From positions 1 through 44,643 of the forward strand of contig JAYENE010000125.1 of NCBI GenBank assembly GCA_034721935.1: a stretch of DNA of 44,643 nucleotides, in the 5' to 3' direction. Positions 3,401-44,643 of the stretch are shown here, one piece after another. This DNA comes from Thermodesulfobacteriota bacterium (GTDB taxonomy: Bacteria > Desulfobacterota > Desulfobacteria > Desulfobacterales > ETH-SRB1). Numbering within the stretch: the stretch's first letter is position 1; each line of letters opens with the position of its first letter. Below the pieces are notes generated by a model. The model made no database searches. It was not told the origin of the DNA and worked only from the letters and a program-made list of their open reading frames with translations. A program made the position numbers and the translations under genes.

Positions 3401-3929
3401 TTTTCTGAAGCCAGAGGCAGAACTGTGCCTGAGGCAGTGAGCTCGGAAGACCTTTGGAACGCAAAATGATACTTAAAACAGCAAGTCGCATGCTTTCACC
3501 ACCACCGGAAGGCAGGGTTCCTGCTGCGGCATGAAGTCCGCCGCATCGCTTTCCCAACGTATCCAGCTCTCTCAGTAGATCGTTTGCCTCGTCCGGCAAC
3601 TGGGTCAGGCCACGGGCAGTCGCGCTATCAGACTCAAACTGGGTATCCACCCATAAATGTCTGAACATTTTGAGAAGGTGAGATTTGCCGCTTCCCAAAA
3701 AACCGCTTACCCATGCGGCAGGCTGAACCGTTGAATCCGCATTCCCCATATACGATTCAAGAATTCGGATAAGGCCTCCCTTATATTGGCCTTCACAGAC
3801 AAAGCGCTCCAGCTCATAACGCAGTGTTTCAATTTCTTTGGTAGTCGCTGATTCCGTTACAGCAGCCACACCGTCATTGAGCAGCTTTGTAGTAGCGGGA
3901 TCTCGTTGAAATATTTCACGATTTTTCAT
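483..3929 (-). CDS. brxC: BREX system P-loop ATPase BrxC/PglY
   Basis: 1148-aa ORF with Walker A GFLGSGKSH after a ~75-aa leader and a Walker B-like VIVLDEIQ. Its size, P-loop position and location directly after DUF1819- and DUF1788-like genes match BrxC. Confidence 0.8.
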   Translation of the reverse strand: MKNREIFQRDPATTKLLNDGVAAVTESATTKEIETLRYELERFVCEGQYKGGLIRILESYMGNADSTVQPAAWVSGFLGSGKSHLLKMFRHLWVDTQFESDSATARGLTQLPDEANDLLRELDTLGKRCGGLHAAAGTLPSGGGESMRLAVLSIILRSKGLPSSLPQAQFCLWLQKNNLYEKVKVSIESVGKDFQSELHDLYVSPIVAQALLDADPAFAPDLKQARAALRTQFPVVKDVSTEEFIRIIRKILSTNGEIPCTVIVLDEIQLFIGDSAKRSTDVMEIAEAICKQLNSRVLLIGAGQTALAGSVPLMQRLRDRFTIPVELSDSDVETVTRRVVLAKKADKRKAIENTLNAHAGEIDRQLSGTRIGTRTEDRAIIVDDYPLLPVRRRFWEHTLRAVDIPGTSSQVRTQLRIVYDAVKEMAEKSLGTVMPADFIFNQLQPDLLRTGVLLREIDETVRNLDDGTPEGELAKRICGLVFLVRKLPREEVADIGVRATPEMMADLLISDLANNGATLRKEIPQILDKLVDKGKLIKIDEEYSLQTRESSEWGRKFRNRQTKLSNDLTSLSSKRSCLLIAACSDVLNGIKLLQGKCKAARKLSIHFGTEPPEVKGNEIPVWIRDGWGENESTALADARAAGTDSPVIYVYVPKAGADDLKKAITEYEAAKATIEFKGTPTTPEGQEARDSMTTRMGSSEVTRNSIIQDVINAAKVIQGGGQELFDLTLKDKVNSAAEISLDRLFPNFQDADDDRWHTVINRAKSGSDAALQAVDWNDAPEKHQVCSAIISEIGSGKKGKDIRDAFESAPYGWPRDAIDAALITLFTTDHIRVTHKGVQLKQGQLDQAKMSVSDFRVETITIDARARIKLRKLFQGAGIPCKPDEESIAASQFLTHLSDMADRASGDPPMPERPSTDHLDNLRVLAGNEQLAEILNQYKTLSKQVKDWSALADLATKRKPAWETLQLLLKHNTTLPESQDLNQQVNAVHEERRLLDKTDPVPAIHKDAVTALRKAVKRAYDDFKAAYDHEMTALEDNDNWNTISSVQQEEILFTEEIADIPDLSIGDDSKLVQSLEETSITIWKTKIDALPKQFSNAAVSAARLLEPETQTVKLTSGTLKTEDDVRNWIEDVEKNLLDKIQDGPIVIS

Positions 3930-4489
3930 TAGTCGTTCACCCCGTTATGTAATGTTATTGGGACTGCTAAGTAATTCCATCCGTCCCGTGCATCAAGGAG
4001 TCGATAATTGTTATTGTCAAACTCACCCGGAAAGAAGAGCAACAAACGCCCCTGAATGTCGTGCACGACTTCCTTCAAGACCAAAGATACCTTGGTGAAT
4101 CCATATAAACTTGCCACTCCATATACTGCCACAACGGTATCGACATTTACATCCGGGGCCATCAGGGCCTTGCGGAGTTCCTGAGCAGCAAACTGTAAAA
4201 AATTGCTTTGAAGTTTCATCGTCAGGTCTTCCGGTGATTCGAAATATAGCTCCCTGTATTCTGTGTTGGCCATCCAATCAGCGAAGGTTTTGGTGAAATT
4301 AAGAGACTTCCAATTATGCCCGGCATCGATAGTTGCCATCTCAAAAAGTTCAAGCCTTGCGCGCAGCTTACGCTCGTCCTCTTTAGGATAGACCGCAAAA
4401 ATGGCCTTTTGATCTCCAGCCAGGTTGCGTTGCCATGGCGCAGAAATATGATTCTGATATCGATTTGCAAGTTCTTCAATCCGTCCCAT
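3929..4489 (-). CDS. brxB: BREX protein BrxB (DUF1788)
   Basis: 186 aa. The opening block MGRIEELANRYQNHISAPWQRNLAGDQKAIFAVYPKEDERKLRARLELFE is the conserved DUF1788 signature. The stop overlaps the brxC ATG by 1 nt (TAATG). Confidence 0.75.
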   Translation of the reverse strand: MGRIEELANRYQNHISAPWQRNLAGDQKAIFAVYPKEDERKLRARLELFEMATIDAGHNWKSLNFTKTFADWMANTEYRELYFESPEDLTMKLQSNFLQFAAQELRKALMAPDVNVDTVVAVYGVASLYGFTKVSLVLKEVVHDIQGRLLLFFPGEFDNNNYRLLDARDGWNYLAVPITLHNGVND

Positions 4490-5315
4490 GAATCAACCGC
4501 CTTTCATCTTCTGTTAACATGCGGGTGAATGAAACCTCAACTACACCACCTGCTTGACTCAAGTCTAAAAACCCTAAGCGTTTTGCGTTGGTAGCCAAAG
4601 AGAGCAGCTCTTCGGCAGGTGTATCAAGCACTTTAGCCCAAGGGGTGTTAAACAAACCACTACCACGAGCCCCCAGAATATATCCCAATAAAAGGGCATA
4701 GGCCGTCACAATAGGCGTAGGGTTGACCTTCTGCCGATATTTTCGCACACGACCTTTTAAATGCCCGGACTGTGTCCATGAGGATGATATATTGCGCACA
4801 ACCGTATCAAGCGTGCTGTCATTTAATCTATTTTCGACACTCTGACGAAGAGCATCTGTCAATTTCTGACGTACGAGCTCTTCCCCAGAGTGCATCTGTA
4901 AAACAGGGGTGACAGTCACTCTTAGGAGAGGGTCGCGAGCCAAACCGGTTAGAAGTGCAAGAAGAGGACGTCCGTTTTCGTCAACCTGCCATAATGACCG
5001 TAGAACTCGAAAAAGAAGGATAGATGGATTTAAACCGTAGAGTTCGCTGAGTCTTTGACAGGAAAGCTTACGTGTGGATACAGTTTTTTTACTTAGACAA
5101 TTTTGGTCAATGATCGCTGAAACATAATCCGCACGAGATGCCTGAGCGCTTTGATCTGCGATCAATAGCTCCAATTCTTTCAGCATAATAGTTCTGCTCG
5201 TGTGTGTACCAATATCTCCAATTCGAAAACCTGCCTTAATCCAGGGCTGAGAATCTACTGACTCCGGCACATGAGCATTTTCTTTAAGTATTGGATCATG
5301 TTTCATATCAACCAT
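4476..5315 (-). CDS. brxA: BREX protein BrxA (DUF1819)
   Basis: 279 aa and first gene of the brxA-brxB-brxC order. The region IKAGFRIG...DQNCLSKKTVSTRKLSCQRLSELYGL resembles DUF1819. It overlaps the brxB start by 14 nt. Confidence 0.65.
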   Translation of the reverse strand: MVDMKHDPILKENAHVPESVDSQPWIKAGFRIGDIGTHTSRTIMLKELELLIADQSAQASRADYVSAIIDQNCLSKKTVSTRKLSCQRLSELYGLNPSILLFRVLRSLWQVDENGRPLLALLTGLARDPLLRVTVTPVLQMHSGEELVRQKLTDALRQSVENRLNDSTLDTVVRNISSSWTQSGHLKGRVRKYRQKVNPTPIVTAYALLLGYILGARGSGLFNTPWAKVLDTPAEELLSLATNAKRLGFLDLSQAGGVVEVSFTRMLTEDERRLIHGTD

Positions 5316-6613: not shown

Positions 6614-7669
6614 ATGGATATTATTATGGATACTCCTAAACTTCAGATCCTTCCGGAATATATTAAGCTGATCTCAAAAATCGATGAGTTCAAAGGAAAA
6701 TGGCAGGCGCTGAGCAGTCTCGCTCCTGACCGATTGGCGCTGCTTAAACGTGTCGCTACTATCGAATCTGTGGGTTCCTCCACCAGGATCGAGGGCGCCA
6801 GGTTAACGGATAGTGAAGTGGAAAGATTGTTGTCGGGACTAAGTACCACCTCTTTTAGGTCAAGGGACGAAGAGGAAGTAGCCGGTTATACTGAAGCGAT
6901 GGAGTTGGTATTTGAGTCATACAGTAAAATCCAAATAGACGAAAATCATATCAAGCAATTACATCAGGTCCTCTTAAAGCATTCATCAAAAGATGCCCGG
7001 CACAGAGGCGAGTACAAGAAGTTTCCGAATCATGTAGAGGCATTTGCCGAAGACGGCAGGAGCCTCGGAATCATTTTTGAAACTGCTTCTCCTTTTGATA
7101 CGCCATTCATGATGGCTGAGTTAATCGAATGGTTTAATAAGGAATGGAAAAGAAGAGAGTTCCATCCTCTCCTGCTTATCGCCATATTTCTTGTTAACTT
7201 TTTAGCCATCCACCCGTTTCAGGATGGAAACGGAAGGTTGTCTCGTATATTCACGACTTTAACGTTATTAAAATCGGGATATTCCTATGTGCCTTACTCT
7301 TCATTAGAAAGAGTCATAGAGGACAATAAGGATCAATACTACTTAGCTCTGAGGCATGCCCAGTCAACCCTTTACACAGATAATGGAAAACTTAATGACT
7401 GGATATTGTTTTTCCTCGAATCGTTAAGAAAGCAGGTCTCTGTTCTGGAATCCAAGATCAAGACTGAAAATGTTATTGCCCAATTGCCGCCACTGTCTCA
7501 GGAGATTGTACAGATTGCCAAACAACACGGAAAAGTCATGGTACGTGATGCTCAGAGAATTACCGGAGCCAACAGGAATACCATTAAAGCTCATATTGCA
7601 AAATTAGTACGAAGGGGCCGGTTGAAGATGGTTGGAAGGGGTAAGGGTACATGGTATAAGCTTCCTTAG
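6614..7669 (+). CDS. Fic family protein (class II, N-terminal inhibitory motif, C-terminal wHTH)
   Basis: Carries the Fic active-site motif HPFQDGNGRLSR. The upstream SSTRIEG fits the (S/T)xxxE(G/N) autoinhibitory helix, and ESVGSSTRIEG looks like a Fic_N domain. The basic C-terminal tail ...RRGRLKMVGRGKGTWYKL is consistent with a winged helix. Confidence 0.9.
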   Translation: MDIIMDTPKLQILPEYIKLISKIDEFKGKWQALSSLAPDRLALLKRVATIESVGSSTRIEGARLTDSEVERLLSGLSTTSFRSRDEEEVAGYTEAMELVFESYSKIQIDENHIKQLHQVLLKHSSKDARHRGEYKKFPNHVEAFAEDGRSLGIIFETASPFDTPFMMAELIEWFNKEWKRREFHPLLLIAIFLVNFLAIHPFQDGNGRLSRIFTTLTLLKSGYSYVPYSSLERVIEDNKDQYYLALRHAQSTLYTDNGKLNDWILFFLESLRKQVSVLESKIKTENVIAQLPPLSQEIVQIAKQHGKVMVRDAQRITGANRNTIKAHIAKLVRRGRLKMVGRGKGTWYKLP

Positions 7670-13198: not shown

Positions 13199-13289
13199 AA
13201 GAAGTTATAAGCGCCTAAAATGCCTAAAGTATATTAAAATGCCTAAAGTTAAGGTATTCTGTCTATTTTAAAGCCTGCTTTGGCGCTAA

Positions 13290-13446
13290 GGGCTCGACAA
13301 AAAATAACTTCACATTTCAGGCGCTGATGCATCCCGCCTGACTGCGTTGCGAAAATTCTGAATATGCTTGATATTCATGCTTTTTCGCGCCTTGTCAGCC
13401 GAGCGCCTCAACACCTGAAATTGCGAACTTATTTTTTGCCGAACCC
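13290..13446. mobile_element. 157-bp MITE family A, copy 1
   Basis: Imperfect ~32-bp TIRs (GGGCTCGACAAAAAATAACTTCACATTTCAG / complement of GGGTTCGGCAAAAAATAAGTTCGCAATTTCAG). TAA is duplicated at 13287-13289 and 13447-13449. By manual alignment it differs at only 2 positions from the reverse complement of copy 3 (37692-37848). Confidence 0.8.
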
Positions 13447-13563
13447 TAACTACCGGTTCGCATAGTAGGCATGGGTCAAGGTTTCAAGGGATATAACTTG
13501 ATTGTATAGGAATTTCCATTTTATGGTCAATTTTAACAATAGGTTGGAGGCTATCAGCGCAAT

Positions 13564-21916: not shown

Positions 21917-22073
21917 GGGTTCGCACAAAAATAAGTTCGCAATTTTAAGTGTTGAGGCGCACGGCTGGCAAGGCGCGAAAGCGCAGGAATATCAGGCATA
22001 TTCCGAGCTTTCGCAACGCAGCCAGGCGGGATGCATCGGCGCTTAAAATGTGAAGTTATTTTTGAGCGAGGCC
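21917..22073. mobile_element. 157-bp MITE family A, copy 2 (diverged)
   Basis: Same length and architecture as copies 1 and 3. TTA is duplicated at 21914-21916 and 22074-22076. It sits 9 nt after the tolA stop. Confidence 0.7.
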
Positions 22074-22136: not shown

Positions 22137-22566
22137 TTTGAACTTATAAAATTCCAAATTTCAAGCATCAAATTACAAATAAATCCCCTGTCTGCGCCTG
22201 CCTGTGCGTTGCACGCAGACAGGTGCGGACACGCACAGGCAGGCAAATCTCAATATTCAATAACCCAAAAAGCTTCGCTTTGCATTTAGCTATTAGCTAT
22301 TGGCTATTGGCTATTGGCTATTGGCTAAAAGTAGCCAATAGCTCTTTCATATACGGGTTCCTGCTGCGACAGTGCGCAAGCACGGCGAGTGGGATTTTGA
22401 ACCTGCCCGCAATGCCTTTGTATGGATTTACACAAGTATCATAATCAGGCGCCTACCAACGTGCTTTTACAGTTAATGTAATTACAACGCATGGCAGGCG
22501 GGTTTTGGTCACGCGCAGCGCAGGCGCTTGCGCCGCGTGTTGTAATTTATTTGTGATTTGTTATTT
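22137..22566. repeat. Bipartite AT-rich element G (tol copy) with other repeats nested between its arms
   Basis: The left arm TTTGAACTTATAAAATTCCAAATTTCAAGCATCAAATTACAAATAAATCCC (22137-22187) and the right arm ATGGCAGGCGGGTTTTGGT...TGTAATTTATTTGTGATTTG (22491-22566) match the arms at 37077-37127 and 37183-37230. Confidence 0.7.
22288..22342. repeat. Heptamer array (A/G)GCTATT x5 with inverted tail
   Basis: The array agctatt agctatt ggctatt ggctatt ggctatt ggcta lies at 22288-22327 and is followed by aaagTAGCCAATAGC. Confidence 0.85.
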
Positions 22567-28024: not shown

Positions 28025-28825
28025 ATGTCAATAATTACTCTTATTACCGATTTTGGCGTTGATGATGAGTATGTTGGTGTTATGAAGGGCGTTATTCTTT
28101 CCATTAACCCTGCCGCAATTATCGTCGATATTACTCACCATATCGAGCCTCAGGACTTAATCCATGCCGCATATATCATAAAGTATTCTTTCAAATATTT
28201 TCCTGAAGGAACAGTTCATATTGTCGTTGTAGATCCGGGAGTTGGGGGTGACCGTGCAATAATCGCCCTTGAAGTAACAGGGCATATTTTTCTTGCACCG
28301 GATAATGGAGTTTTAACCCTTTTAATGGATGAAGGTAATATCGGCCCGATCGTTCGTGTTGATGACTTACATTATTTTTTAGAATCTGTAAGCCAAACTT
28401 TTCATGGAAGAGATATTTTTGCCCCGGTTGCCGGCCACCTGTCTAAGGGAATTAAAATTAAAACATTAGGCACGCCAATAGATAAGATAGATTTAAAAAG
28501 ACTGCCCATTAAATATCCCGGCCTTTCAAACAGCGGCGAACTTTTTGGAACTGTTGTATCTATCGACCGGTTCGGCAACCTGATTACGAACATAGATGCA
28601 AAAAGCCTTGATAAATTTTGCAAGGCCTGCAATAAAGAAAAATTGGAATTCAGGATAGGCCAAAACAAAATTATTGGATTATCCAAAAGCTATGAAAGCG
28701 CATTGCCGCAAAATCCTCTTGCCATCATTGGCAGCAGAGGGTATCTTGAAATAGCGGTAAATTACGGCAGCGCCAGGCGCTATTTTATGGCCGATAAGGG
28801 TGATACGGTTACAGCGCTTAAATAA
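28025..28825 (+). CDS. SAM hydroxide adenosyltransferase / SAM-dependent halogenase family protein (DUF62)
   Basis: IITLITDFGVDDEYVGVMKGVILSINP...IVDITHHI.PQD...VVVDPGVGGDR...APDNGVL...FHGRDIFAPVAGHL is the conserved DUF62 pattern. Confidence 0.85.
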   Translation: MSIITLITDFGVDDEYVGVMKGVILSINPAAIIVDITHHIEPQDLIHAAYIIKYSFKYFPEGTVHIVVVDPGVGGDRAIIALEVTGHIFLAPDNGVLTLLMDEGNIGPIVRVDDLHYFLESVSQTFHGRDIFAPVAGHLSKGIKIKTLGTPIDKIDLKRLPIKYPGLSNSGELFGTVVSIDRFGNLITNIDAKSLDKFCKACNKEKLEFRIGQNKIIGLSKSYESALPQNPLAIIGSRGYLEIAVNYGSARRYFMADKGDTVTALK

Positions 28826-28944
28826 GCATTTTTTAACACCAGAAGTAGTTGGAGCAAAATTCACAATTCACAATTAGCAATTGATTATTAACAATTTGTA
28901 GTGATATAACTAAATAGTTATCGACGCTGACCCATTTTGTATAG

Positions 28945-29107
28945 TACCTAAATTGAGCGATTTTTTACTCGATCTGCGCCGATCTCTTGCGCATAAAGGC
29001 TTCGCAAAAATCCTCGACATATCCACGGGTATGCCTGCGGTTTTTGCAAATCTTTATGCATCAACATCTCAGCACATATCTTCGCAAAAAATCGCTCAAC
29101 TTAGGTA
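28945..29107. repeat. 163-bp long imperfect palindrome (element B)
   Basis: The terminal arms are TACCTAAATTGAGCGATTTTTT and AAAAAATCGCTCAACTTAGGTA (1 mismatch), with nested internal arms gcgcataaaggcttcgcaaaaa / tttttgcaaatctttatgca. It lies between AT-rich inverted arms at 28858-28902 and 29108-29140. Confidence 0.65.
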
Positions 29108-29197
29108 ATAATCAATTGTAAATTACTAATTGTTAATGATTTTTCTCTTATTTAAGCGCTTATGGGGAATACAGTTACAGTAGCATCGAACAACTTA

Positions 29198-29407
29198 GGT
29201 TCAACCGGAACTGATGTGGTAAATCGACCCTCTTTTTGCCGTTTTTTCGTTGTTTTACAGGTAGTTATGCCAAAATCAAAAAAGTGGCATTTTTTTCCAT
29301 CCTTAAGATATTGATATCTTAACAATGATTTGTGTAACAGATTGATTTTATTGACCACACTGATTCCGGTTGACGGGGTTCTGTGTCACACCAGTTCCGG
29401 TTGAGCC
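29198..29407. mobile_element. 210-bp MITE family F, copy 1
   Basis: The TIRs are GGTTCAACCGGAACTGATGTGG and the complement of GGCTCAACCGGAACTGGTGTGA, plus a subterminal third copy of the CAACCGGAA motif. An 8-bp TSD ACAACTTA lies at 29190-29197 and 29408-29415. By manual alignment it is about 95 percent identical to the reverse complement of 38812-39031. Confidence 0.85.
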
Positions 29408-29433
29408 ACAACTTATAGGTTTTTTTAGAGAAG

Positions 29434-30822
29434 GTGATGGCTCGTTATATCAAGATGCGGATATTTTATACATGGCTTGCGCTGATTATGTTGCAGGCAA
29501 TTAGCCCAGGAGTTTCAGCATCACAGCATAAGGAGGCCAAGTTGAAGGCCGTTGCAAGCCATCAATCGAGCCTGGCAAGTCGGGCGAAAGCACCGGATGT
29601 GCTTATTTCATTTGATAATGACGGTGGCACAAAATATGCGATAGTGGTTGAAAAGGACACTCAGCAGTTACTTGTCTATTCTTATGATGATTCCTTTAAG
29701 GAAATGTATCGCTTTAAATGTTCGACCGGCGAAGTGGCTGGGGGAAAATCACGCTCCGGAGACAAGAAGACGCCTGAAGGGGTCTACTTTTTCACCCATG
29801 GGTATAAAAAGAGGGATCTTTCGCCAACCTATGGAACTATGGCCTTTCCGATAGATTATCCTAATTTTTTTGATCGCATTGAAGGCTGCAAGGGGTATTC
29901 GATTTGGCTTCATGGAACCGATAAACCGATAAAACCGAGGAATTCTAATGGGTGTGTTGTTCTTGCAAACAATGATATTAATAGATTGGCAAAATATATA
30001 GATTTAAATAGAACCCCGATTATCATTGTGGATAAGCTTTCCTTTGTATCAGCAGATAACAATAATGGAATTAAAAATTCCATATTGAAGTTAATTTCAC
30101 AATGGAAAGATGCTCTTGAAAATGGCACTTGTCATGAGTATTTGAATTCATATAGCGATGAATATGCTCCTGATATTTTGTGGTGGTCTGATTGGGCCGG
30201 AATTAAAAAGAGTTTTCAGGCCTCTCAACTTGAGTTATCTGTTGAGCTGAAAAGGAATTCGATTTTCAGGCACAACGGCATTTATATGATTTTGTTTGAC
30301 CAGATTGTCAGTTCTTCAGGCATTAATTTATTAGTTGGACGTAAGAAGCTTTATGTGTCAGACACGGAAGGCCGATTCAGAATAGTTGGCGAAGAGTATC
30401 AGTCTGTTTCGAAAAGGCATAATAGTTCCAAACAAAAATATCCTCTTGTTGCTGCAAGTTGCAACCTGAAAAGTACGCTTGAAGGTAAATATGAAATCGA
30501 AGACCTGATTGATGGGTGGCTGAAAGCCTGGTCTGATAGAGATATTAGGCGCTATGGCAAATATTATGCAAATAATTTTCGGTCCCGGGGCATGAATCTT
30601 AGGTCATGGCTTAAGTATAAAAACCGATTAAATCGGGAATACAAGTTTATTAATGTTTCGAAAGATAAACTAGTTATTAAAAAAGGTAAAAAGAGGGCTG
30701 AAGCTTCTTTTGTGCAAACTTATGAATCTAATGTCTTCGAGGCAGTAGGCATAAAACGGCTAATATTAATACGTGAAAAGGGATTGTGGAAAATCTACCG
30801 GGAAACCTGCAAAAATTTGTAA
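29434..30822 (+). CDS. YkuD-fold L,D-transpeptidase/carboxypeptidase family protein (YafK/Csd6/Pgp2-like) with C-terminal NTF2-like domains
   Basis: Signal peptide; catalytic-domain pattern GDKKTPEGVYFF...YGTMAFPIDYPNFFD...SIWLHGT...SNGCVVLANNDINRL. The C-terminal ~250 aa contain two WK/WL..W....I..Y...Y segments suggesting NTF2/SnoaL-like folds. Start could be GTG 29434 or ATG 29437. Confidence 0.75.
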   Translation: MMARYIKMRIFYTWLALIMLQAISPGVSASQHKEAKLKAVASHQSSLASRAKAPDVLISFDNDGGTKYAIVVEKDTQQLLVYSYDDSFKEMYRFKCSTGEVAGGKSRSGDKKTPEGVYFFTHGYKKRDLSPTYGTMAFPIDYPNFFDRIEGCKGYSIWLHGTDKPIKPRNSNGCVVLANNDINRLAKYIDLNRTPIIIVDKLSFVSADNNNGIKNSILKLISQWKDALENGTCHEYLNSYSDEYAPDILWWSDWAGIKKSFQASQLELSVELKRNSIFRHNGIYMILFDQIVSSSGINLLVGRKKLYVSDTEGRFRIVGEEYQSVSKRHNSSKQKYPLVAASCNLKSTLEGKYEIEDLIDGWLKAWSDRDIRRYGKYYANNFRSRGMNLRSWLKYKNRLNREYKFINVSKDKLVIKKGKKRAEASFVQTYESNVFEAVGIKRLILIREKGLWKIYRETCKNL

Positions 30823-37076: not shown

Positions 37077-37230
37077 TTTGAACTTATAAAATCCCAAATC
37101 ACAAGCATCAAATTACAAATAAATCCCAAGCTTGAATATTCAATGACCAAAACATGTTTGGAGTTTCAAATCTGCCCGACGGATGGCAGGCGGGTTTTGG
37201 TTATTGTAATTTATTTGATATTTGATATTT
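37077..37230. repeat. Bipartite AT-rich element G (rplM-rpsI copy)
   Basis: The left arm (37077-37127) matches 22137-22187 at nearly every position, and the right arm ATGGCAGGCGGGTTTTGGTTATTGTAATTTATTTGATATTTG (37183-37230) matches 22491-22566. It fills most of the 236-bp spacer inside the L13-S9 operon. Confidence 0.75.
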
Positions 37231-37289
37231 GTTGTTTCCGGAAAGGAAATTCCTATACAATAAATTTAATTATTATCAGGAAGCAGTAT

Positions 37290-37685: not shown

Positions 37686-37691
37686 TATTTA

Positions 37692-37848
37692 GGGTTCGGC
37701 AAAAAATAAGTTCGCAATTTCAGGTGTTGAGGCGCTCGGCTGACAAGGCGCGAAAAAGCATGAATATCAAGCATATTCAGAATTTTCGCAACGCAGTCAG
37801 GCGGGATGCATCGGCGTCTGAAATGTGAAGTTATTTTTTGTCGAGCCC
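37692..37848. mobile_element. 157-bp MITE family A, copy 3
   Basis: TTA is duplicated at 37689-37691 and 37849-37851. The element is inserted 3 nt after the rpsI stop and is a near-identical inverted copy of 13290-13446. Confidence 0.8.
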
Positions 37849-38108
37849 TTATATACAGGAAAATCACCGAATACATGGAATCAATAGCCTGATGATGCAC
37901 ACCATTGCGGATGCATTTGGTTGTTGGAAATGTTTTTCTGCCACATGCCATCAGCTCCTCCGATAATGATTAGCGCTGCAGCCTTAACTTGTTGCGCGTA
38001 AACCTTTCAACCTCTTTATAACCTAAGATGAGCGATTAGCTGTTAGTCCGCCAACGGTCTCTGGCGGATTAGCCTTTAGCTAAGAGCTAATGGCTAATAG
38101 CTTTATCC

Positions 38109-38146
38109 TGAACCTCTGAACCTTGAACCTCTGAACCCGTGAACGG
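38109..38146. repeat. TGAACCT/CTGAACCT tandem array
   Basis: The units are tgaacct ctgaacct tgaacct ctgaaccc gtgaacgg. The array is preceded by GCTAAT-type repeats and the hairpin TCCGCCA-acggtctc-TGGCGGA (38047-38068). Confidence 0.8.
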
Positions 38147-38192
38147 TTACAATATGCCCTTGCTTTGCCTGTGAATATTTCATCAAAATTGA

Positions 38193-38552
<360 letters not shown>

Positions 38553-38555
<3 letters not shown>

Positions 38556-38685
38556 TCGAGTAGTCAAGTGGTCAAGTCGTTGAGTAGTCAAGTAGTTAAA
38601 AGGTTGTCAACCCTGAACTCTGAACCGTGAACCCTGAACCCTTGTGAAGCAGGCTATAACCTTTGAACCTTGAACCTTGAACCGC
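38553..38685. repeat. Octamer array TAGTCAAG-type x6, then TGAACCC-type arrays
   Basis: The units tagtcgag tagtcaag tggtcaag tcgttgag tagtcaag tagttaaa lie at 38553-38600, and the first unit contains the glnB stop. They are followed by ctgaactc tgaaccg tgaaccc tgaaccc and ttgaacc x3. Confidence 0.85.
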
Positions 38686-38692
38686 TCACTTT

Positions 38693-39116
38693 AGGTAGCC
38701 CTGCCCTTTACCCATAAGTTATCTCTCCATTAGTAATTAACAGTTATCAATTGATTATTAACTATTATTATTGGCTTTTGGGGCATAAATATAAAAACAT
38801 AAAACAAATAAGGCTCAACCGGAACTGGTGTGACACCGAACCCCGTCAACCGGAATCAGTGTGGTCAATAGAATCAATCTGTTACACAAATCATTGTTAA
38901 GATATCAATATCTTAAGGATGGTATTAAGGGTAAAAAAATGCCACTTTTTTGATTTTGGCATAACTACCTGTAAAACAACGTAAAAACGGCAAAAAGAGG
39001 GTCGATTTACCACATCAGTTCCGGTTGAACCACAAATAATCAATTGTCAATAACTAATTGTTAATTAAGGATAAAAATATGTCTCAATACTTATGGGTAA
39101 AGGGCAGAGGTAGCCT
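38693..39116. repeat. Composite nested palindrome upstream of the cytochrome operon
   Basis: The outer 19-bp perfect arms are CTGCCCTTTACCCATAAGT (38701-38719) and ACTTATGGGTAAAGGGCAG (39089-39107). The inner AT-rich arms are taattaacagttatcaattgattatt (38732-) and aataatcaattgtcaataactaattgttaatta (39035-39067). MITE F copy 2 is inserted in the centre. Confidence 0.75.
38812..39031. mobile_element. 220-bp MITE family F, copy 2 (inverted relative to copy 1)
   Basis: Same TIRs as copy 1. An 8-bp TSD ACAAATAA lies at 38804-38811 and 39032-39039. It carries an 11-bp indel relative to copy 1. Confidence 0.85.
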
Positions 39117-39123
39117 TTGATTT

Positions 39124-40968
39124 GTGCAGAAGGTAATATCAAAACTTTTTATTTTTTCTCTTTTCATCTTTTGCTCTGGTGGCTGCGACTATGCAGGCAA
39201 AATCGATTCAACCTGTGTGTCCTGTCACAAGGGGCTGGAGCCGGCTTCGGCTGTTCACACCTCCTGTGTTGCGTGCCATGGGGGCAACCCCAAGGAAAAA
39301 GACAAGAAAGCTTCCCACCAATCCATGTTCGGCCCCAAAAATCCTGCAGATCCACGGTTCTGGGATCAATCCTGCGGCAGTTGTCACCCGTATCAACTGG
39401 GACGCATCAAGGGGAATCTGATGCACACAAACACCGGGATGATAAAGAACATTCAGGCAACATGGGAAGGCGCAAACGGCAAATTATACGGAGCCGGACC
39501 CGAGGCGGTTTCTGACGCTGCCGGGAATCCCCTGGAAATCAAAAGTGTGACCGAGCTGGATAATATTTCCGGTGAACTCTATCGCAAATTCTGCTCCCGG
39601 TGCCATGTGGGGATCGAATCGAACCGGTCCTACAGCTCCTGCCACGGGTCCGGCTGTGCGGCCTGTCATTTTCCTTACAACGACACCGCCACCTATGAAG
39701 GGAATGATTCTACCGTAAAAGGTAAGTGGCCGTATTCGGCTGACCATAAGCTCGTTGCCTTGCCCGATAACAGGGTCTGTTTTCGCTGCCATAATCGCAG
39801 TGGCAGGATCGCTCTCTCCTACGAGGGTCTGAACGATGGCAACAATTCCATGGTGCCGACCCGTAACGGCATGCCGGGCCCTATGCTGATCAGCGGGGGG
39901 CGAAACGTGGTTCATATCACCCCCGACATTCACTATGTCAAGGGGATGGATTGCATTGATTGCCATACCTCACGGGACGTCATGGGCGACGGGTATGCAT
40001 ATGAAAACATGTACCTTCAGATGGAGATCAGGTGTGAAGATTGTCACGGCAGCGCCACGGAGCGGCCAAAAGCTGAGGCGATTACGCGGGAGAACGAGGA
40101 AGCGGTGAGGGAGTCGAAAAGCTACAAAAGGCAGGTGCGGCCGGGCATGAAAATGATACTGACTGCCAGGGGGCGCAAGTACTCCAATGTGTTTTACGAG
40201 GATGAAAAGATCTATGTCCTGGGCAAGCGCAGCGGCAAGCTGCATGAAAGCAAGGTCATCACCGGCACCCCGGAACACACCATTGCAGGTCATGAGCGTA
40301 TGGAATGCTATGCCTGCCACTCGCGCACCGTGGTCCAGTGCTACGGGTGTCACACCAGGTACGATCAGTCCCGGTATGGCAAGGATTTTATCAAGGGTAT
40401 TAAGACTCCTGGCTTGTTCAGTGAAACCGAGGACTACAGGATGCTTTACCCGTTCTCTCTGGCAGTGAACCAGCGCGGGAAAATTTCGCCGGTGACCCCG
40501 GGTTGCCAGACGTTTGTGACAATGGTTGATCAGAAGGGCAGGATCATCAAAAAGGAATATGTCGCCGAATACAAAGGCAAAAACCAGTTACGATTTGCAC
40601 CCTTCTATTCACACAATACAGGGAACAAGGCCGTGGGCTGTACCGAATGCCATGGCAACCCCGCGTTTTTAGGCTTTGGCCAGCATGTTGTGGAAGGCAG
40701 CAGTATAACAGCGACCTTTATCTGCGAAAAATCGAAAGATAGGCCGCTTGATGGGTTTCTTACCATGAAGAGCGGGAGCGTGAGTCCCTTTTCTGCCATT
40801 ACACGGGAAAATTCACGACCCTTAAACAGTAAAGAGGTAAAGAATGTGCTGACTGTTAACCTCTGCCTAATTTGCCACGATAATGCCAAAGACAAAATAT
40901 ATCAAAAGGAGCTTGATTATCGTGTTCTTGACGATTGTCTCAATCGCCCTGTGCCTGTTAGCCGTTAG
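39124..40968 (+). CDS. Dodecahaem c-type cytochrome (12 CxxCH), secreted or lipid-anchored
   Basis: 614 aa with a hydrophobic N-terminus ending FCSGGC. Twelve CxxCH motifs were counted: CVSCH, CVACH, CGSCH, CSRCH, CAACH, CFRCH, CIDCH, CEDCH, CYACH, CYGCH, CTECH and CLICH. Confidence 0.85.
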   Translation: MQKVISKLFIFSLFIFCSGGCDYAGKIDSTCVSCHKGLEPASAVHTSCVACHGGNPKEKDKKASHQSMFGPKNPADPRFWDQSCGSCHPYQLGRIKGNLMHTNTGMIKNIQATWEGANGKLYGAGPEAVSDAAGNPLEIKSVTELDNISGELYRKFCSRCHVGIESNRSYSSCHGSGCAACHFPYNDTATYEGNDSTVKGKWPYSADHKLVALPDNRVCFRCHNRSGRIALSYEGLNDGNNSMVPTRNGMPGPMLISGGRNVVHITPDIHYVKGMDCIDCHTSRDVMGDGYAYENMYLQMEIRCEDCHGSATERPKAEAITRENEEAVRESKSYKRQVRPGMKMILTARGRKYSNVFYEDEKIYVLGKRSGKLHESKVITGTPEHTIAGHERMECYACHSRTVVQCYGCHTRYDQSRYGKDFIKGIKTPGLFSETEDYRMLYPFSLAVNQRGKISPVTPGCQTFVTMVDQKGRIIKKEYVAEYKGKNQLRFAPFYSHNTGNKAVGCTECHGNPAFLGFGQHVVEGSSITATFICEKSKDRPLDGFLTMKSGSVSPFSAITRENSRPLNSKEVKNVLTVNLCLICHDNAKDKIYQKELDYRVLDDCLNRPVPVSR

Positions 40969-42148
40969 TCCGGCACGCGGCCACGATATCTCGCTCAAAG
41001 GGGTGCATGCCGCCCTGCCCTGCTCTTCGTGCCATGGGGATGACGCGGAAAGGATTAGTCATCCGGCATCCCGTGACAATCGAGCCCGCGGCTGTGTGAG
41101 CTGCCACCAGGGTTACGATGCCCTGTTTGATCAGGCGATGACCACCAGGGCAAGGGAAAGGCGGTTCGTGGAACAGACCTTTGGCAAGGCCGATCCGCCC
41201 TTTTACCAAAAAAACTGTCAATCCTGCCATGTCAGGGATTGTCTGGACTGTCACGGGGAAAACAGCCACAACATCACCAGGCCGGCGCAAAGCAGTTGCC
41301 TTGGCTGCCATAAGGGGTACTTTGTCGGAGCAGACTATCTCGGTATGGCCCCCCGGGAGGATAGTGTTCGTTATCAGCGCGGGAATCTGTTTAAAGGAGA
41401 GACCTTCCTTAAGATGCTTCCTGATGTACATGCTGAGGAAGGAATGGAATGCGGCGATTGCCATTCAATGAAGAGTCTTGTCGCGGGGAGCAAATCGTCG
41501 AAAAAATGTGTTGACTGCCACAAGCCGAATGATAATGTGATTGAACATGGCATTACGGCCCATCTGACAAACTTGGAATGTTATTCCTGTCATTCAGCAT
41601 GGGCTGCCCAGGAGTATGGAACCTTTTACATCCGTTTTGTAAACAGCCCCTCTAATAAATACTTCAGGGTTAAGCAAAAAAGCGGCAGCGAATATATTAA
41701 GAGCGCCTATCTTAGAATGCAGAACCCAGCCCCTCTGGGAATTAACAATACCGGAAAAGTCAGTCCCATCCGTCCGCAGTTTATCAGTTACTTTTCCGAT
41801 ATCAGGGATGGGAAACCTGCGGGGGAGGAAAACCGGCTGCTGGCCGCGTACTGGAAGGCATTCTTCCCTCATACAATACGCAGGGGAACCGTCATGTGCG
41901 ATGGATGTCATAACAACGCGCGCAGGTTTATTCTGGAAAAAGAGGAAAACAGGATTTACCAGTTGCAGATAGACGGCATGGCCCTCAATTCCTTCTGGGA
42001 CCAGGCTGGTCAGGAAGTGATAAATGGGTTTTTTATGGAGCCTTCGCGGTTTGCCAGTATGTCCTCGAAAAGTCCCGCTTATACAAAAGCCTATGTAAAA
42101 AAATGGAAAAGGTTGGTAGATCGCGTCGAAGATTCATCAAGGCAGTAG
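40883..42148 (+). CDS. Nonahaem c-type cytochrome (9 CxxCH)
   Basis: 421 aa with signal peptide MPKTKYIKRSLIIVFLTIVSIALCLLAVSPARG. Nine CxxCH motifs are present. The C-terminal half is paralogous to the upstream cytochrome (ECYSCH...GKVSPIRPQF...CDGCHNN versus ECYACH...GKISPVTPGC...CTECHGN). It overlaps the upstream gene by 86 nt. Confidence 0.8.
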   Translation: MPKTKYIKRSLIIVFLTIVSIALCLLAVSPARGHDISLKGVHAALPCSSCHGDDAERISHPASRDNRARGCVSCHQGYDALFDQAMTTRARERRFVEQTFGKADPPFYQKNCQSCHVRDCLDCHGENSHNITRPAQSSCLGCHKGYFVGADYLGMAPREDSVRYQRGNLFKGETFLKMLPDVHAEEGMECGDCHSMKSLVAGSKSSKKCVDCHKPNDNVIEHGITAHLTNLECYSCHSAWAAQEYGTFYIRFVNSPSNKYFRVKQKSGSEYIKSAYLRMQNPAPLGINNTGKVSPIRPQFISYFSDIRDGKPAGEENRLLAAYWKAFFPHTIRRGTVMCDGCHNNARRFILEKEENRIYQLQIDGMALNSFWDQAGQEVINGFFMEPSRFASMSSKSPAYTKAYVKKWKRLVDRVEDSSRQ

Positions 42149-42495
42149 CTTTTGTAATCGCTTCTGTTTCACTGGTTTGGAAATTCCTGATTCCCCGGGT
42201 TTCTCGGAAAAAACCCTTGCTGCGTGTGGCAAAAGCAGAGATTCCCCCTGGCGGGGCCCTTGTTTTCCGGAAATCGAGAGTGGCTATCATAAGGGAGGGC
42301 GATGATATTTATGCCCTTAGCATTGTGTGTACCCATCTCGGGTGTAGCGTCAACGTAACTCCCAGGGAGCTGATTTGCCCGTGCCACGGCAGCGTTTTCG
42401 GCAGGGACGGAGCGGTTTTCAAGGGACCCGCAGATCGTCCGTTGAAACAGCTTGCAGTGGAAGAACGCGGTGAATTCATTGTTGTCCTGGGCTGA
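42103..42495 (+). CDS. Rieske [2Fe-2S] subunit of a cytochrome bc-type complex
   Basis: 130 aa with a twin-arginine leader (SRRRFIKAVAF) and TM anchor. Box I is CTHLGC and box II is CPCHGSVF, including the disulfide cysteines typical of bc/b6f Rieske proteins. Confidence 0.88.
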   Translation: MEKVGRSRRRFIKAVAFVIASVSLVWKFLIPRVSRKKPLLRVAKAEIPPGGALVFRKSRVAIIREGDDIYALSIVCTHLGCSVNVTPRELICPCHGSVFGRDGAVFKGPADRPLKQLAVEERGEFIVVLG

Positions 42496-43123
42496 GGCAG
42501 TTTTGTTCAAAGACTTTTTGGAACACATCTTTCCCAGGCTTATTCTCCAGAAGAATCTCAGTATAAGCTATACCTTTTGTCTTGGCGGGCTTGCTTTTAC
42601 GGCCTTTATACTGCTAATTGTTTCCGGGCTGCTTTTACTCTTTTATTATCAGCCGTGTCCTGAAAAGGCTTTCGAGTCGATCCTGTTTCTGGAGTCTTCC
42701 GTCACCGGAGGCTGTTTTGTCAGGAGCCTCCACCGGCTTGCTTCCCACGCTTTCCTTGTGTTTATCTTCCTGCATACGTTGCGGGTTATTCTCACCGGGG
42801 CATACAGAAAACCGCGGGAGCTTAACTGGGTAATCGGTTTTGTCATCCTCTGTTTCGCTGTTTTTGAAGCCTACGCCGGTTATCTGCTTCCGATGGATCA
42901 ACTTGCATTCTGGGGAACCCACACCGGCATGGAACTGATTAGTACGGTGCCTTTCGGAGAAATGATACGGAATTTTTTAGTCCCTGACGAAATTGGGCAG
43001 GCAATGTCCCTGCTCAGGTTTTACACATTACATATTGCGGTTATCCCTTTGGCGATCGCGTTACTCTGTTTTTTGCATTTCTACCGAATTCGCCACGACA
43101 AGGGGGTGTTACCATACCTGTGA
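42452..43123 (+). CDS. Cytochrome b, b6-like (N-terminal four-helix half)
   Basis: Helix B His pair with 13 intervening residues (LHRLASHAFLVFIFLH) and helix D His pair with 14 intervening residues (LHIAVIPLAIALLCFLH), the b6-type spacing. FCLGG matches the YCLGG haem-ci cysteine context of b6. The start is uncertain: TTG 42452 overlaps the Rieske gene, and TTG 42503 is an alternative. Confidence 0.85.
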   Translation: MQWKNAVNSLLSWAEAVLFKDFLEHIFPRLILQKNLSISYTFCLGGLAFTAFILLIVSGLLLLFYYQPCPEKAFESILFLESSVTGGCFVRSLHRLASHAFLVFIFLHTLRVILTGAYRKPRELNWVIGFVILCFAVFEAYAGYLLPMDQLAFWGTHTGMELISTVPFGEMIRNFLVPDEIGQAMSLLRFYTLHIAVIPLAIALLCFLHFYRIRHDKGVLPYL

Positions 43124-43533
43124 AAGGCTACATACAAAGTTCCCCATTTTTTTTCCGGCTCATAGCGATTTCCATGGGCTTGCTGGTCGCCTTTTTAGTG
43201 ATTCTCGCGATTATCATCCTGGCGCCGCTTGATGGCCCGGCCGATATCGCAAGTGTGCCGAATCCCATTAAATCCGCATGGTTTCTGCTGTGGATCCAGG
43301 AGCTGGTCAGTTATTCTAACTATCTGGTTTACCTTATTATCTTCCTTGGACTCTACTTTTTATTACTCCCTTACCTGCCTGGTAGTCCTGAATGCAAAAG
43401 AGCAAGGTGGCTGCAGAAAGATCAGTTGCCAATCAGTATCCTGACAATGATGATCTTTTTTGCGATCCTTGTGTTGACGGTTGTCGCCATGTTTTTCAGA
43501 GGTGAAAATTGGGCATTTGTTTTCAATCTTTAA
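43120..43533 (+). CDS. Cytochrome b C-terminal half / subunit IV-like protein
   Basis: 137 aa with 3 hydrophobic helices. PNPIKSAWFLLWIQELV aligns with the P.HIKPEWYFLFAYAILR Qo-site segment of cytochrome b/PetD. GTG start with a GTGA overlap on the cyt b stop. Confidence 0.7.
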   Translation: MKGYIQSSPFFFRLIAISMGLLVAFLVILAIIILAPLDGPADIASVPNPIKSAWFLLWIQELVSYSNYLVYLIIFLGLYFLLLPYLPGSPECKRARWLQKDQLPISILTMMIFFAILVLTVVAMFFRGENWAFVFNL

Positions 43534-43550
43534 TCCACAGATTACGCAGA

Positions 43551-43631
43551 CCCGCCTGCCACTGCGAGCTCGCCCGCCAGCCAAGCCTAACGGATTCACA
43601 GGCGAGGCGGTCTGGGGCACAAGCGGGCAGG
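43551..43631. repeat. 81-bp GC-rich insert flanked by a 9-bp direct repeat
   Basis: TTACGCAGA occurs at 43542-43550 and 43632-43640, immediately flanking CCCGCCTGCCA...AGCGGGCAGG. The same terminal words occur at 8999-9064. Confidence 0.55.
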
Positions 43632-43643
43632 TTACGCAGATTT

Positions 43644-44435
43644 TTGTGGGTTATTGGGTTAAATTCCTCGATTCTTGCCGGTATTTTTTTCTTGCAGAGC
43701 GTTGTCGCCCTGGCCGCCGGGTCTGGTTGCTTAAAATGCCACGAGCCCCATTATGAGGAAAAAGGGGCATGTGTAGACTGCCACAGGGGTAACCCAGGGA
43801 CGGACAGGGTTTCGATTGCCCATCATGACCTGATCCTGGCCAGATACGCTGACTTTACGATGGAACCCAGCCCGGTGGTGAAGCGGGGCAGGAAGCTTAT
43901 TGAGACTTTTGGTTGCAGGAGATGTCATGTTACTGGGACAAAGGGGAACCGCCTTGCCGCCAATCTTGACAGGGTAATCGTTGCCGCACGGCCGCAAAAG
44001 CTTTTCGATTCCATAAAGACACCTGTGCTTTTCATGCCCGATTTTTGTTTCAAAGAGACGCACATAATAGAGATAGTTAACGCCATCCTGGCCCAGGCCG
44101 CCCGAACCGAACCGGAAGCCGGAGAAATACCGCTGGTGATTCATTTTGAAGATGAAAAACAGGATGAAGAGAGCGTTTTTGTGAAGCATTGCGGTTCTTG
44201 CCACACGGCGCTGACCGCCCGGTTCGGGGGCATGGGGAAAGGGAATATAGGTCCGAATCTCTCAGGTCTTTTTTCAGAATATTATCCGAAAACTTATGGC
44301 AACAAGGATCAGTGGTCTTCCGAGCCCCTTAAAAAATGGTTGAAAAATCCAAGAGAAGTCCGCAAGAACGCGCAAATGGCGCCCGTAAAATTAACGTCAG
44401 ATGAGTTCTCCCGCCTGTTAGAGGCGCTATTATAA
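43644..44435 (+). CDS. Tetrahaem c-type cytochrome (two short haem motifs plus two class-I-like domains)
   Basis: The proposed TTG start gives the signal peptide MWVIGLNSSILAGIFFLQSVVALAAGSGC. The four motifs are CLKCH, CVDCH, CRRCH and CGSCH. The last domain has GPNLSGLF and ...NAQMAP, as in class I cytochromes c. The ORF-track start at 43509 lies in the repeat insert and is rejected. Confidence 0.75.
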   Translation: MWVIGLNSSILAGIFFLQSVVALAAGSGCLKCHEPHYEEKGACVDCHRGNPGTDRVSIAHHDLILARYADFTMEPSPVVKRGRKLIETFGCRRCHVTGTKGNRLAANLDRVIVAARPQKLFDSIKTPVLFMPDFCFKETHIIEIVNAILAQAARTEPEAGEIPLVIHFEDEKQDEESVFVKHCGSCHTALTARFGGMGKGNIGPNLSGLFSEYYPKTYGNKDQWSSEPLKKWLKNPREVRKNAQMAPVKLTSDEFSRLLEALL

Positions 44436-44643
44436 TCATTTAACACTTCTTACAGCCCTGACGGACATCTTTTTATACATTTATAATTATCTATTTAATT
44501 CCCTCTCTACTGGGTGAGCAGAAATTTACAAACTCATTATCTGGTCAACCTGAGGCAGCGGACAATTAAATTTAAGAACGGCTGAAACTCGCACATAAGT
44601 GAGCGTAAAGAAATAACTTAGAGCAATCCTTTTATAAAAAGCT

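Follow-up and report, generated by a model that had tools for sequence, protein, structure and literature searches.

Locus and gene content

We analysed a 44,643-nt stretch of contig JAYENE010000125.1 from a Thermodesulfobacteriota bacterium of the Desulfobacterales (the whole stretch is called the window here), near the end of which six open reading frames (ORFs) on the + strand, g1 to g6, form an operon between 39124 and 44435. In their order on the strand they encode a 12-haem cytochrome c, a 9-haem cytochrome c, a Rieske protein, a cytochrome b of the b6 type, a homologue of subunit IV and a tetrahaem cytochrome c, and we use for them the names ExtM, ExtN, ExtO, ExtP, ExtQ and ExtS of their Geobacter counterparts. 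An ORF check of the window placed all six at exactly the limits given in a first-pass annotation made from the sequence alone, and the tight, overlapping packing described there is evident from overlaps of 86 nt (g1/g2), 46 nt (g2/g3), 4 nt (g4/g5) and 25 nt (g5/g6); the overlap of g3 and g4 amounts to 44 nt when the longest ORF of g4 (start at 42452) is taken. Motif counting confirmed the predicted haem numbers, with 12 CxxCH motifs in g1, 9 in g2, 4 in g6 and none in g3 to g5. These make 25 motifs across the three coding frames of the operon, with none in its three reverse frames, and a control scan of the 9,741 residues encoded by the 28 other ORFs of the window found none either; the number in the operon is far above chance expectation. 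Domains of the c3/c7 multihaem type were matched by Pfam on g1, g2 and g6. In a hydropathy scan four transmembrane segments were seen in g4, three in g5 and one, N-terminal, in g3 (i.e., 4 + 3 + 1 helices for ExtP, ExtQ and ExtO), and the three cytochromes c were hydrophobic only at their N-termini. No RNA family was found by an Rfam scan of the entire window, a promoter scan gave no convincing site, and a terminator scan found no terminator-like site after ExtS and, inside the operon, no more sites than expected from shuffling.

The operon is very probably an orthologue of the Geobacter Cbc6 (CbcMNOPQR) or ExtMNOPQS cluster, i.e., of genes for a Rieske/cytochrome b complex of the inner membrane that combines a core resembling b6f with three multihaem cytochromes. 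Its cytochrome b is 72% identical to a protein of Geotalea daltonii that bears the NCBI name [quoted passage not shown]. The Cbc6 locus of G. daltonii (L001) has the same six-gene order, and its products (617, 416, 132, 206, 137 and 259 aa) are 69, 56, 59, 72, 53 and 48% identical to ExtM, ExtN, ExtO, ExtP, ExtQ and ExtS of the window. ExtM, ExtN, ExtQ and ExtS also score above the cut-offs of the NCBIfam equivalogs of a "selenite/tellurite reduction operon". When one genome per GTDB species was scanned for close relatives of the cytochrome b, 208 loci came up, the best 80 of which were retrieved. These 80 belong to Desulfuromonadales, Geobacterales and Desulfobacterales, and among those that extend far enough to include the entire cluster the majority keep the six-gene order.

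In the literature the cluster appears under several names. Butler et al. (2010) described a "bc complex" as conserved throughout the Geobacter genomes and listed in it a cytochrome b, a Rieske protein and cytochromes with 12, 10 and 2/4 haems (PMC2825233); it corresponds to extKLMNOPQS inside extHIJKLMNOPQS (PMC5877670) and to Cbc6/CbcMNOPQR, GSU2930-2935 (bioRxiv 10.1101/2021.04.15.440034). It is predicted to be a menaquinol:cytochrome c oxidoreductase and counts among the most conserved cytochrome clusters of Geobacter (PMC2825233; bioRxiv 10.1101/2021.04.15.440034; PMC13591261), and Desulfobacterales of the Seep-SRB1a/g clades were reported earlier to have a homologue of Cbc6 (PMC10553843). 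The first-pass annotation had proposed an electron link between the quinone pool and the periplasm, distinct from both a classical bc1 and a b6f complex, which agrees with the prediction made for Geobacter. It had been unable to match the combination to a characterised complex, and the novelty implied by this has to be corrected, the cluster being a named and widely conserved one (PMC2825233, PMC5877670, PMC13591261; NCBIfam equivalogs). It had regarded a well-characterised named complex of the same gene order as fatal to its proposal; the combination is indeed already named and catalogued but not yet biochemically characterised. The full extHIJKLMNOPQS "selenite/tellurite" operon was considered for the window and rejected: tblastn with the G. 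daltonii proteins found no homologue of ExtH-L (the rhodanese ExtH, the porin ExtI, ExtJ and the selenocysteine cytochrome ExtKL) in the window, i.e., none in the 39 kb upstream of the operon, and the window stops 208 nt past ExtS.

The Rieske/cytochrome b core

ExtO (42103-42495, + strand, 130 aa; Pfam Rieske, E=7e-12) is a small Rieske [2Fe-2S] protein with a twin-arginine signal anchor, its N-terminus containing SRRRF and one hydrophobic helix. The motifs RR-x-F (SRRRF), CTHLGC and CPCHGS-x-F are invariant across 14 orthologues, in keeping with the earlier description of a Rieske protein targeted to the twin-arginine translocation (Tat) pathway. Its nearest solved structures are small Rieske proteins of the b6f type; among solved structures the Rieske profile best matched an entry titled "Similar to the Rieske Protein II of bc1 complex", which, from its style of annotation only, we presume to be an anammox protein. 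Box II of ExtO keeps the Ser, and the next residue is Phe where bc1 and b6f have Tyr. Given what is generally known of the hydrogen-bond networks of Rieske proteins, this exchange suggests a lowered potential that would be compatible with menaquinol.

ExtP (+ strand, 42503-43123, longest ORF 42452-43123) is a four-helix cytochrome b of the b6 type (PF00033 Cytochrome_B, E=1.4e-38; PF13631, E=5.5e-36). Its true start is probably the TTG at 42503, which gives 206 aa, and not 42452, because nearly all of the relatives are 206 aa long. Cytochrome b6 is its best solved relative (E=1.6e-37), followed by bc1 cytochromes b at about 1e-25. Counted on the 223-aa ORF, its four invariant histidines are His94, 108, 194 and 209; they fall opposite the b6 ligands His86/100/187/202, and the four-helix cytochrome b of the first-pass annotation is confirmed. 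The motif FCLGG (CxGG), invariant in 11 sequences, aligns with Cys35 of b6. CxGG is the proposed signature of a covalent haem cn/ci (PMC5600118, PMC4122944), and ExtP would probably bind haem cn at this cysteine.

ExtQ (43120-43533, + strand, 137 aa, three helices) scores 185.3 bits against NCBIfam memb_ExtQ (cut-off 150). It has no direct Pfam match and stays below the PF00032 threshold; a search with its profile against PDB sequences returned only chance-level matches to photosystem I PsaA (E about 0.6), and an AlphaFold2 model from a 31-sequence alignment was poor (predicted local distance difference test, pLDDT, 66; predicted template modelling score, pTM, 0.41), with nothing meaningful found by Foldseek against the PDB. 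Weak PF00032 matches are present in 7 of the 31 family members, and the family profile, when run against 1.84 billion representatives, found 821 proteins. The matches sampled from these are either proteins of about 175 aa with PF00032 above threshold or fused cytochromes b of 330-480 aa, which have the ExtQ-like part at the C-terminus (profile matches of E=1e-13 to 1e-26), and both kinds align to ExtQ along all three helices. Because the family profile reaches PF00032-bearing proteins and fused cytochromes b, ExtQ is, as judged from this transitive homology, a genuine homologue of subunit IV (PetD, the C-terminal domain of cytochrome b), and the earlier label "subunit IV-like" holds by way of the family profile, not of a direct Pfam match. 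At the Qo-motif position the alignment has K-S-A-W-F in ExtQ and K-A-P-W-Y in its nearest PF00032 relatives, and within the ExtQ family the motif varies as S/A-A/G-W-F. In these alignments the Qo motif of the Cbc6 family is devoid of both the proline and the acidic residue of PEWY/PDWY.

The multihaem cytochromes

ExtM (39124-40968, + strand, 614 aa, N-terminus MQKVISKLFIFSLFIFCSGGC) is a 12-haem cytochrome c and a predicted lipoprotein that scores 1074.6 bits against NCBIfam NF040943 cytoc3_ExtM (cut-off 800). Twelve motifs were counted in 58 of the 62 ExtM orthologues. The N-terminus is of the lipoprotein type in all orthologues, with an L-x-G-C lipobox in the relatives and SGGC in the window. 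ExtN (40883-42148, + strand, 421 aa), the 9-haem cytochrome c whose start lies within the end of ExtM, has an N-terminal cleavable signal or anchor helix and scores 664.6 bits against NF040967 cytc_ExtN (cut-off 200). Its orthologues have 9 motifs in 36 loci, 10 in 25 (Geobacter among them) and 8 in 5; the count of 9 in the window is inside the range of the family, and the 9-haem form is commoner than the form with 10. Structure-sequence searches with ExtM and ExtN gave no useful solved relatives. As a side observation, the NCBIfam model NF040968 "FeS_ExtO" matches the 9-haem ExtN (670 bits), nearly as NF040967 does, but misses the Rieske protein itself, for which no Ext-specific model gave a match; NF040968 looks like a mislabelled or duplicated library model that would mis-annotate ExtN genes.

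ExtS (43509-44435, + strand) is a tetrahaem cytochrome c encoded by a 308-aa ORF with 4 CxxCH motifs, which includes an inserted repeat (see below). It scores 363.6 bits against NCBIfam cytc_ExtS (cut-off 100), with residues 57-307 covered, and PF13442 and PF00034 were matched, i.e., two class I cytochrome c domains. The protein has a signal peptide ending ALA|AGSGC, the first CxxCH directly after it, a second c3/c7-like haem and then the two class I domains, the last (C-terminal) of which is akin to mitochondrial-type cytochrome c. Four motifs are present in 74 of the 75 ExtS orthologues. Among the three cytochromes ExtS is the likely, natural candidate for the acceptor of the Rieske electrons.

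Probable horizontal acquisition and repeat elements

The GC content of the operon is 0.49-0.51, compared to roughly 0.35-0.43 across the preceding 30 kb, and the GC content at third codon positions (GC3) is 0.51-0.61 in its genes and 0.30-0.48 in the host genes, as expected from the GC-richer block reported earlier. This shift in GC3 is not a result of expression-driven codon bias, because the highly expressed rplM and rpsI have a GC3 of only 0.38. The rplM-rpsI-glnB region upstream is collinear with and 91-97% identical to that of L006, a metagenome-assembled genome labelled uncultured Desulfobacterales, in which the operon is 93% identical and its proteins are 87-98% identical. In the window and in L006 the GC content of the operon is about 10 points above that of the flanks, whereas in Desulfuromonadales loci the two match. 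Close relatives hold the operon in differing genomic contexts. Because of the GC3 shift, the GC excess over the flanks and these differing contexts, the operon looks horizontally acquired, and probably was so, by this uncultured Desulfobacterales lineage.

The "nest of mobile repeats" noticed earlier upstream of the operon is a miniature inverted-repeat transposable element (MITE)-like element at 38696-39112 (no strand assigned), which ends 12 nt before the start of ExtM, has 24-nt terminal inverted repeats (TAGCCCTGCCCTTTACCCATAAGT / ACTTATGGGTAAAGGGCAGAGGTA) and contains nested inverted repeats (I3, I4, I6, I7). The stretch 38633-39116 is absent from the collinear L006. The core of the element (38812-39031) has a counterpart of 94% identity at 29198-29407, which is on the opposite strand and inside the intergenic region 28825-29434 (copy at 29107-29407). 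Three further intergenic segments of the window, 37083-37270, 37690-37899 and 38019-38151, are likewise extra in comparison with L006. The part 37690-37851 matches 13287-13448 (98.8%) and 21927-22063 (89%), and 37083-37270 shares a repeat with 22143-22187 (BLAST within the window); L006 is without these repeats at the corresponding sites. Aligned with each other, the intergenic insertions showed no common family; BLAST sorts them into distinct repeat families, all of which have further copies elsewhere in the window, and the genome seems to be rich in small non-autonomous elements. Two kinds of short repeats were seen in the same region, i.e., an 8-nt tandem repeat (GTCAAGTN, about 6 units, 38555-38602) immediately after the stop codon of glnB, and repeats of the TGAACC/GAACCT type that flank inserted segments (38111-38130, 38615-38680).

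A second insertion lies within the operon. A repeat element of 135 nt (43534-43668, no strand assigned) directly follows the stop codon of ExtQ and adds 45 codons in frame with ExtS. No such element is present in L007, L003 or L010; it has 123 nt in L006, where it is also in frame, and is shorter in L009, in which the sequence past the ExtQ junction is unrelated and ExtS is missing; fragments of the element recur upstream of the operon in L007. In the 308-aa ORF the insert adds 45 residues in front of the signal peptide of native ExtS, which has about 263 aa; alternatively, translation of ExtS may restart at the TTG at 43644 rather than at the old coupled start at 43509.

The last ~190 nt of the window (44451-44643) match neither L006 nor L007, both of which diverge at or just after the ExtS stop codon, and may stem from one more repeat insertion or from a change of context past the operon. 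Elsewhere the window is made up of ordinary chromosomal DNA (Tol-Pal, RuvB, PdxJ, aspartokinase and a BREX fragment). The BREX-like defence fragment (483-5315, - strand) encodes a protein of 1148 aa with a BrxC winged-helix domain and a BrxB-like protein of 186 aa; its GC content (0.45-0.49) is above that of the following 30 kb, and a Fic-domain protein comes next at 6614-7669.

Proposed electron transfer

From these features we infer a complex whose core would consist of the Tat-exported Rieske protein ExtO, the four-helix cytochrome b ExtP (haems bL and bH) and the three-helix subunit IV ExtQ, and in which ExtS (4 haems, of which two lie in class I domains), ExtN (9 haems) and the lipoprotein ExtM (12 haems) would replace cytochrome f/c1 on the periplasmic side. 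Menaquinol would be oxidised at a Qo-type site built by ExtP, ExtQ and ExtO. One electron would pass from the Rieske protein to ExtS, on to ExtN/ExtM and finally to soluble or membrane-associated periplasmic redox enzymes; the other would cross the b haems (in a Q cycle, or at least a Q loop), so that the oxidation of quinol would be coupled to charge separation. Identical wiring could run in reverse. The complex is most likely a menaquinol:multihaem cytochrome c oxidoreductase that feeds, or is fed by, periplasmic redox enzymes, possibly in sulfur metabolism.

Several points weigh against this assignment. The subunit composition, the binding of haem cn and the activity are deduced from sequence, and no member of the family has been purified so far. 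ExtP scores 227.7 bits against NCBIfam cytb_ExtP, below the cut-off of 290, yet ExtP is its top family. SAWF has neither the proline nor the carboxylate of PEWY/PDWY, and canonical bifurcated oxidation of quinol is therefore not guaranteed. Bis-His multihaem cytochromes are usually lower in potential than the Rieske centre, which makes a simple downhill transfer from the Rieske protein to the 25 haems questionable. Downstream partners lie outside the window, which ends so soon after ExtS, and the repeats upstream and at the ExtQ/ExtS junction could impair expression. Finally, according to a 2026 review the physiological roles of Cbc3-6 are still unknown (PMC13591261).

Gene neighbourhood and alternative functions

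The neighbours of the operon were counted in the 46 loci with at least 3.4 kb of sequence upstream of ExtM. A gene for ExtKL (the selenocysteine cytochrome MccSep) is present there in 23 of the 46 and the porin gene extI in 19, and genes of molybdopterin (Mo-) oxidoreductases adjoin the operon in L001 and L024. In two Desulfobacterales loci, L003 (4138-5451, - strand) and L010 (1533-2747), a divergently transcribed ExtKL/MccSep homologue stands beside the operon. It shares 52% identity with its G. daltonii counterpart and keeps a conserved in-frame TGA in GHGIPDG-U-PTPNRL (consensus GHxIPDG-U-PTPNRL). Gene callers split this Desulfobacterales homologue into ORFs of 311 and 92 aa. In L008, likewise a Desulfobacterales relative, ExtKL is found downstream of the operon (2922-3092). 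In the closest relatives, L006 (9109-11785) and L007 (6592-10762), ExtS is directly followed by genes for a small secreted protein, a YeeE/YedE sulfur transporter (PF04143), TusA and a DsrE-like protein, and L007 also carries a TauE/SafE exporter downstream of ExtS. ExtKL (MccSep) is a selenocysteine pentahaem polysulfide reductase that is essential for the respiration of elemental sulfur and for which no electron donor has yet been named (bioRxiv 10.1101/2025.11.18.688581); ExtH resembles rhodanese and ExtI is tied to the reduction of selenite and tellurite (PMC5877670). These neighbours point to periplasmic reductases, and to sulfur chemistry especially.

The same complex may run in reverse, with periplasmic cytochromes c (supplied by a syntrophic partner, by H2/formate or by the oxidation of sulfide/sulfur) reducing menaquinone, followed by cytoplasmic sulfate reduction; this is a serious alternative in a sulfate-reducing host, although we think it somewhat unlikely. 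The host belongs to the Desulfobacterales, sulfate reducers that need a route from the periplasm to the quinone pool. The nearest wider relatives of ExtQ carry APWY, the motif that Kao and Hunte associate with complexes proposed to run backwards (PMC4122944), and reverse flow has been suggested for Seep-SRB1 (PMC10553843). However, the operons of Desulfuromonadales stand beside genes of terminal reductases (MccSep, Mo-enzymes), which fits the oxidation of quinol better, and genes for sulfate reduction, hydrogenases or an outer-membrane conduit are absent from the window.

Within the forward reading, i.e., a menaquinol oxidoreductase, a narrower function can be put forward tentatively, namely that the complex is a dedicated electron supply for the periplasmic reduction of sulfur, polysulfide or selenite and the donor to MccSep/ExtKL, in this lineage re-linked to YeeE-TusA-DsrE. 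It is consistent with the frequency of ExtKL and ExtI next to the operon, with the divergent ExtKL genes and their in-frame TGA in L003 and L010 and the downstream ExtKL of L008, with the vacant place of a donor for MccSep (bioRxiv 10.1101/2025.11.18.688581), with the properties of ExtH and ExtI (PMC5877670), and with the Sulf_transp, TusA and DsrE genes that directly follow ExtS in L006 and L007. This is evidence from gene neighbourhood only, however: half of the loci are without ExtKL nearby, and in the window no ExtH-L homologue occurs upstream and the downstream sequence ends just past ExtS. The reduction of polysulfide by menaquinol is, moreover, thermodynamically uphill and would need the proton-motive force or a special mechanism.

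A bolder version, which we consider doubtful, would make the Cbc6-type complexes the missing membrane partner of periplasmic sulfur, polysulfide or selenium reductases. The Qo site without proline and carboxylate, together with haem cn, might let electrons from menaquinol reach low-potential multihaem acceptors in a process that is assisted by the proton-motive force or bifurcating, and not a normal Q cycle; the module would have moved by horizontal transfer into the Desulfobacterales and been re-linked there to YeeE-TusA-DsrE.

The first-pass annotation had also allowed for extracellular partners, i.e., for the operon as the inner-membrane entry to extracellular electron transfer (respiration of metals or electrodes, direct interspecies electron transfer). 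CbcL and CbcBA have such a function in Geobacter sulfurreducens (bioRxiv 10.1101/2021.04.15.440034), and some cbcMNOPQR genes shift their expression in co-cultures with direct interspecies electron transfer (PMC10989804). We regard this option as improbable all the same: no phenotype ties Cbc6 to extracellular acceptors (PMC13591261), the window has no genes for a porin-cytochrome conduit, for OmcS/Z-like cytochromes or for pilins, and the porin of the Geobacter cluster, ExtI, is akin to phosphate-selective porins and not to pcc porins (PMC5877670). Least probable of all is that the operon in the window was transferred recently and is now decaying or weakly expressed, perhaps disturbed by the MITE-like and 135-nt insertions: these are absent in relatives, GC3 is atypical and L009 has no ExtS past the same junction, yet none of the six ORFs is broken and all cofactor ligands are conserved, the proteins stay close to those of L006, and the junction insertion, whether of 135 nt (window) or of 123 nt (L006), keeps the frame of ExtS.

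As a find the operon matters little, the cluster being known from a comparison of Geobacter genomes made in 2010 and receiving its name automatically from NCBI models. Cbc6 is, however, the only Rieske/cytochrome b enzyme among the quinol oxidoreductases of the Geobacter type, and its function is still unassigned. The comparative data (the linkage to MccSep and to sulfur trafficking, the spread in Desulfobacterales with a signature of transfer, and SAWF beside a conserved haem cn site) lead to a concrete and testable hypothesis for the electron donor of the MccSep sulfur reductase. A Rieske/cytochrome b complex without the canonical Qo residues would also be a useful natural variant for work on the mechanism of quinol oxidation.

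Comparison with known systems

The operon resembles Geobacter Cbc6 (GSU2935-GSU2930; L001 in G. daltonii) in its six genes, their order, the similar lengths of the products and identities of 48-72%, and shares with it the 12-haem lipoprotein, the Tat-dependent Rieske protein, the b6-type cytochrome b with CxGG, ExtQ and the 4-haem ExtS. It differs in having 9 instead of 10 CxxCH motifs in ExtN, no ExtHIJKL upstream, a Desulfobacterales host of about 40% GC, an ExtP below the equivalog cut-off, and repeats inserted upstream and at the ExtQ/ExtS junction.

With the b6f complex (PetB/PetD/PetC) and the b6c complexes of Firmicutes and heliobacteria it has in common a split cytochrome b (4 + 3 helices) with four histidines, the CxGG motif of haem cn, a Rieske protein with CTHLGC/CPCHGS, and cytochrome b6 as the best solved match. 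Unlike these, it has neither cytochrome f nor small Pet subunits, and three cytochromes with 25 haems stand in place of a single c-type subunit; the Qo motif is SAWF and not PEWY/PDWY, and ExtQ is below the PF00032 threshold. A b6f complex proper was rejected, since no product matches cytochrome f, small Pet subunits are missing and the c-type subunits belong to the c3/c7-like and class I multihaem kinds; a classical bc1 complex was rejected because the cytochrome b is split (206 aa + 137 aa) and there is no monohaem c1.

The closest wider relatives of ExtQ by profile search are those of the "APWY clade" of Kao and Hunte (2014), which includes deltaproteobacterial, Nitrospirae and Planctomycetes (anammox) enzymes that have multihaem subunits. 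The likeness consists in a split or fused cytochrome b, CxGG, a Qo motif without the acidic residue, and operons that often contain multihaem cytochromes, whereas the window has SAWF instead of APWY, FCLGG instead of WCMGG, and in ExtM, ExtN and ExtS other cytochromes than those of the clade.

Among the other quinol oxidoreductases of Geobacter, CbcL (Cbc1), CbcBA (Cbc5) and ImcH are similar in that they are predicted or shown to connect the menaquinone pool with periplasmic cytochromes (bioRxiv 10.1101/2021.04.15.440034). They are without a Rieske protein and a bc-type cytochrome b, and Cbc6, which unlike them has no known phenotype, is the sole Rieske/cytochrome b member of this set.

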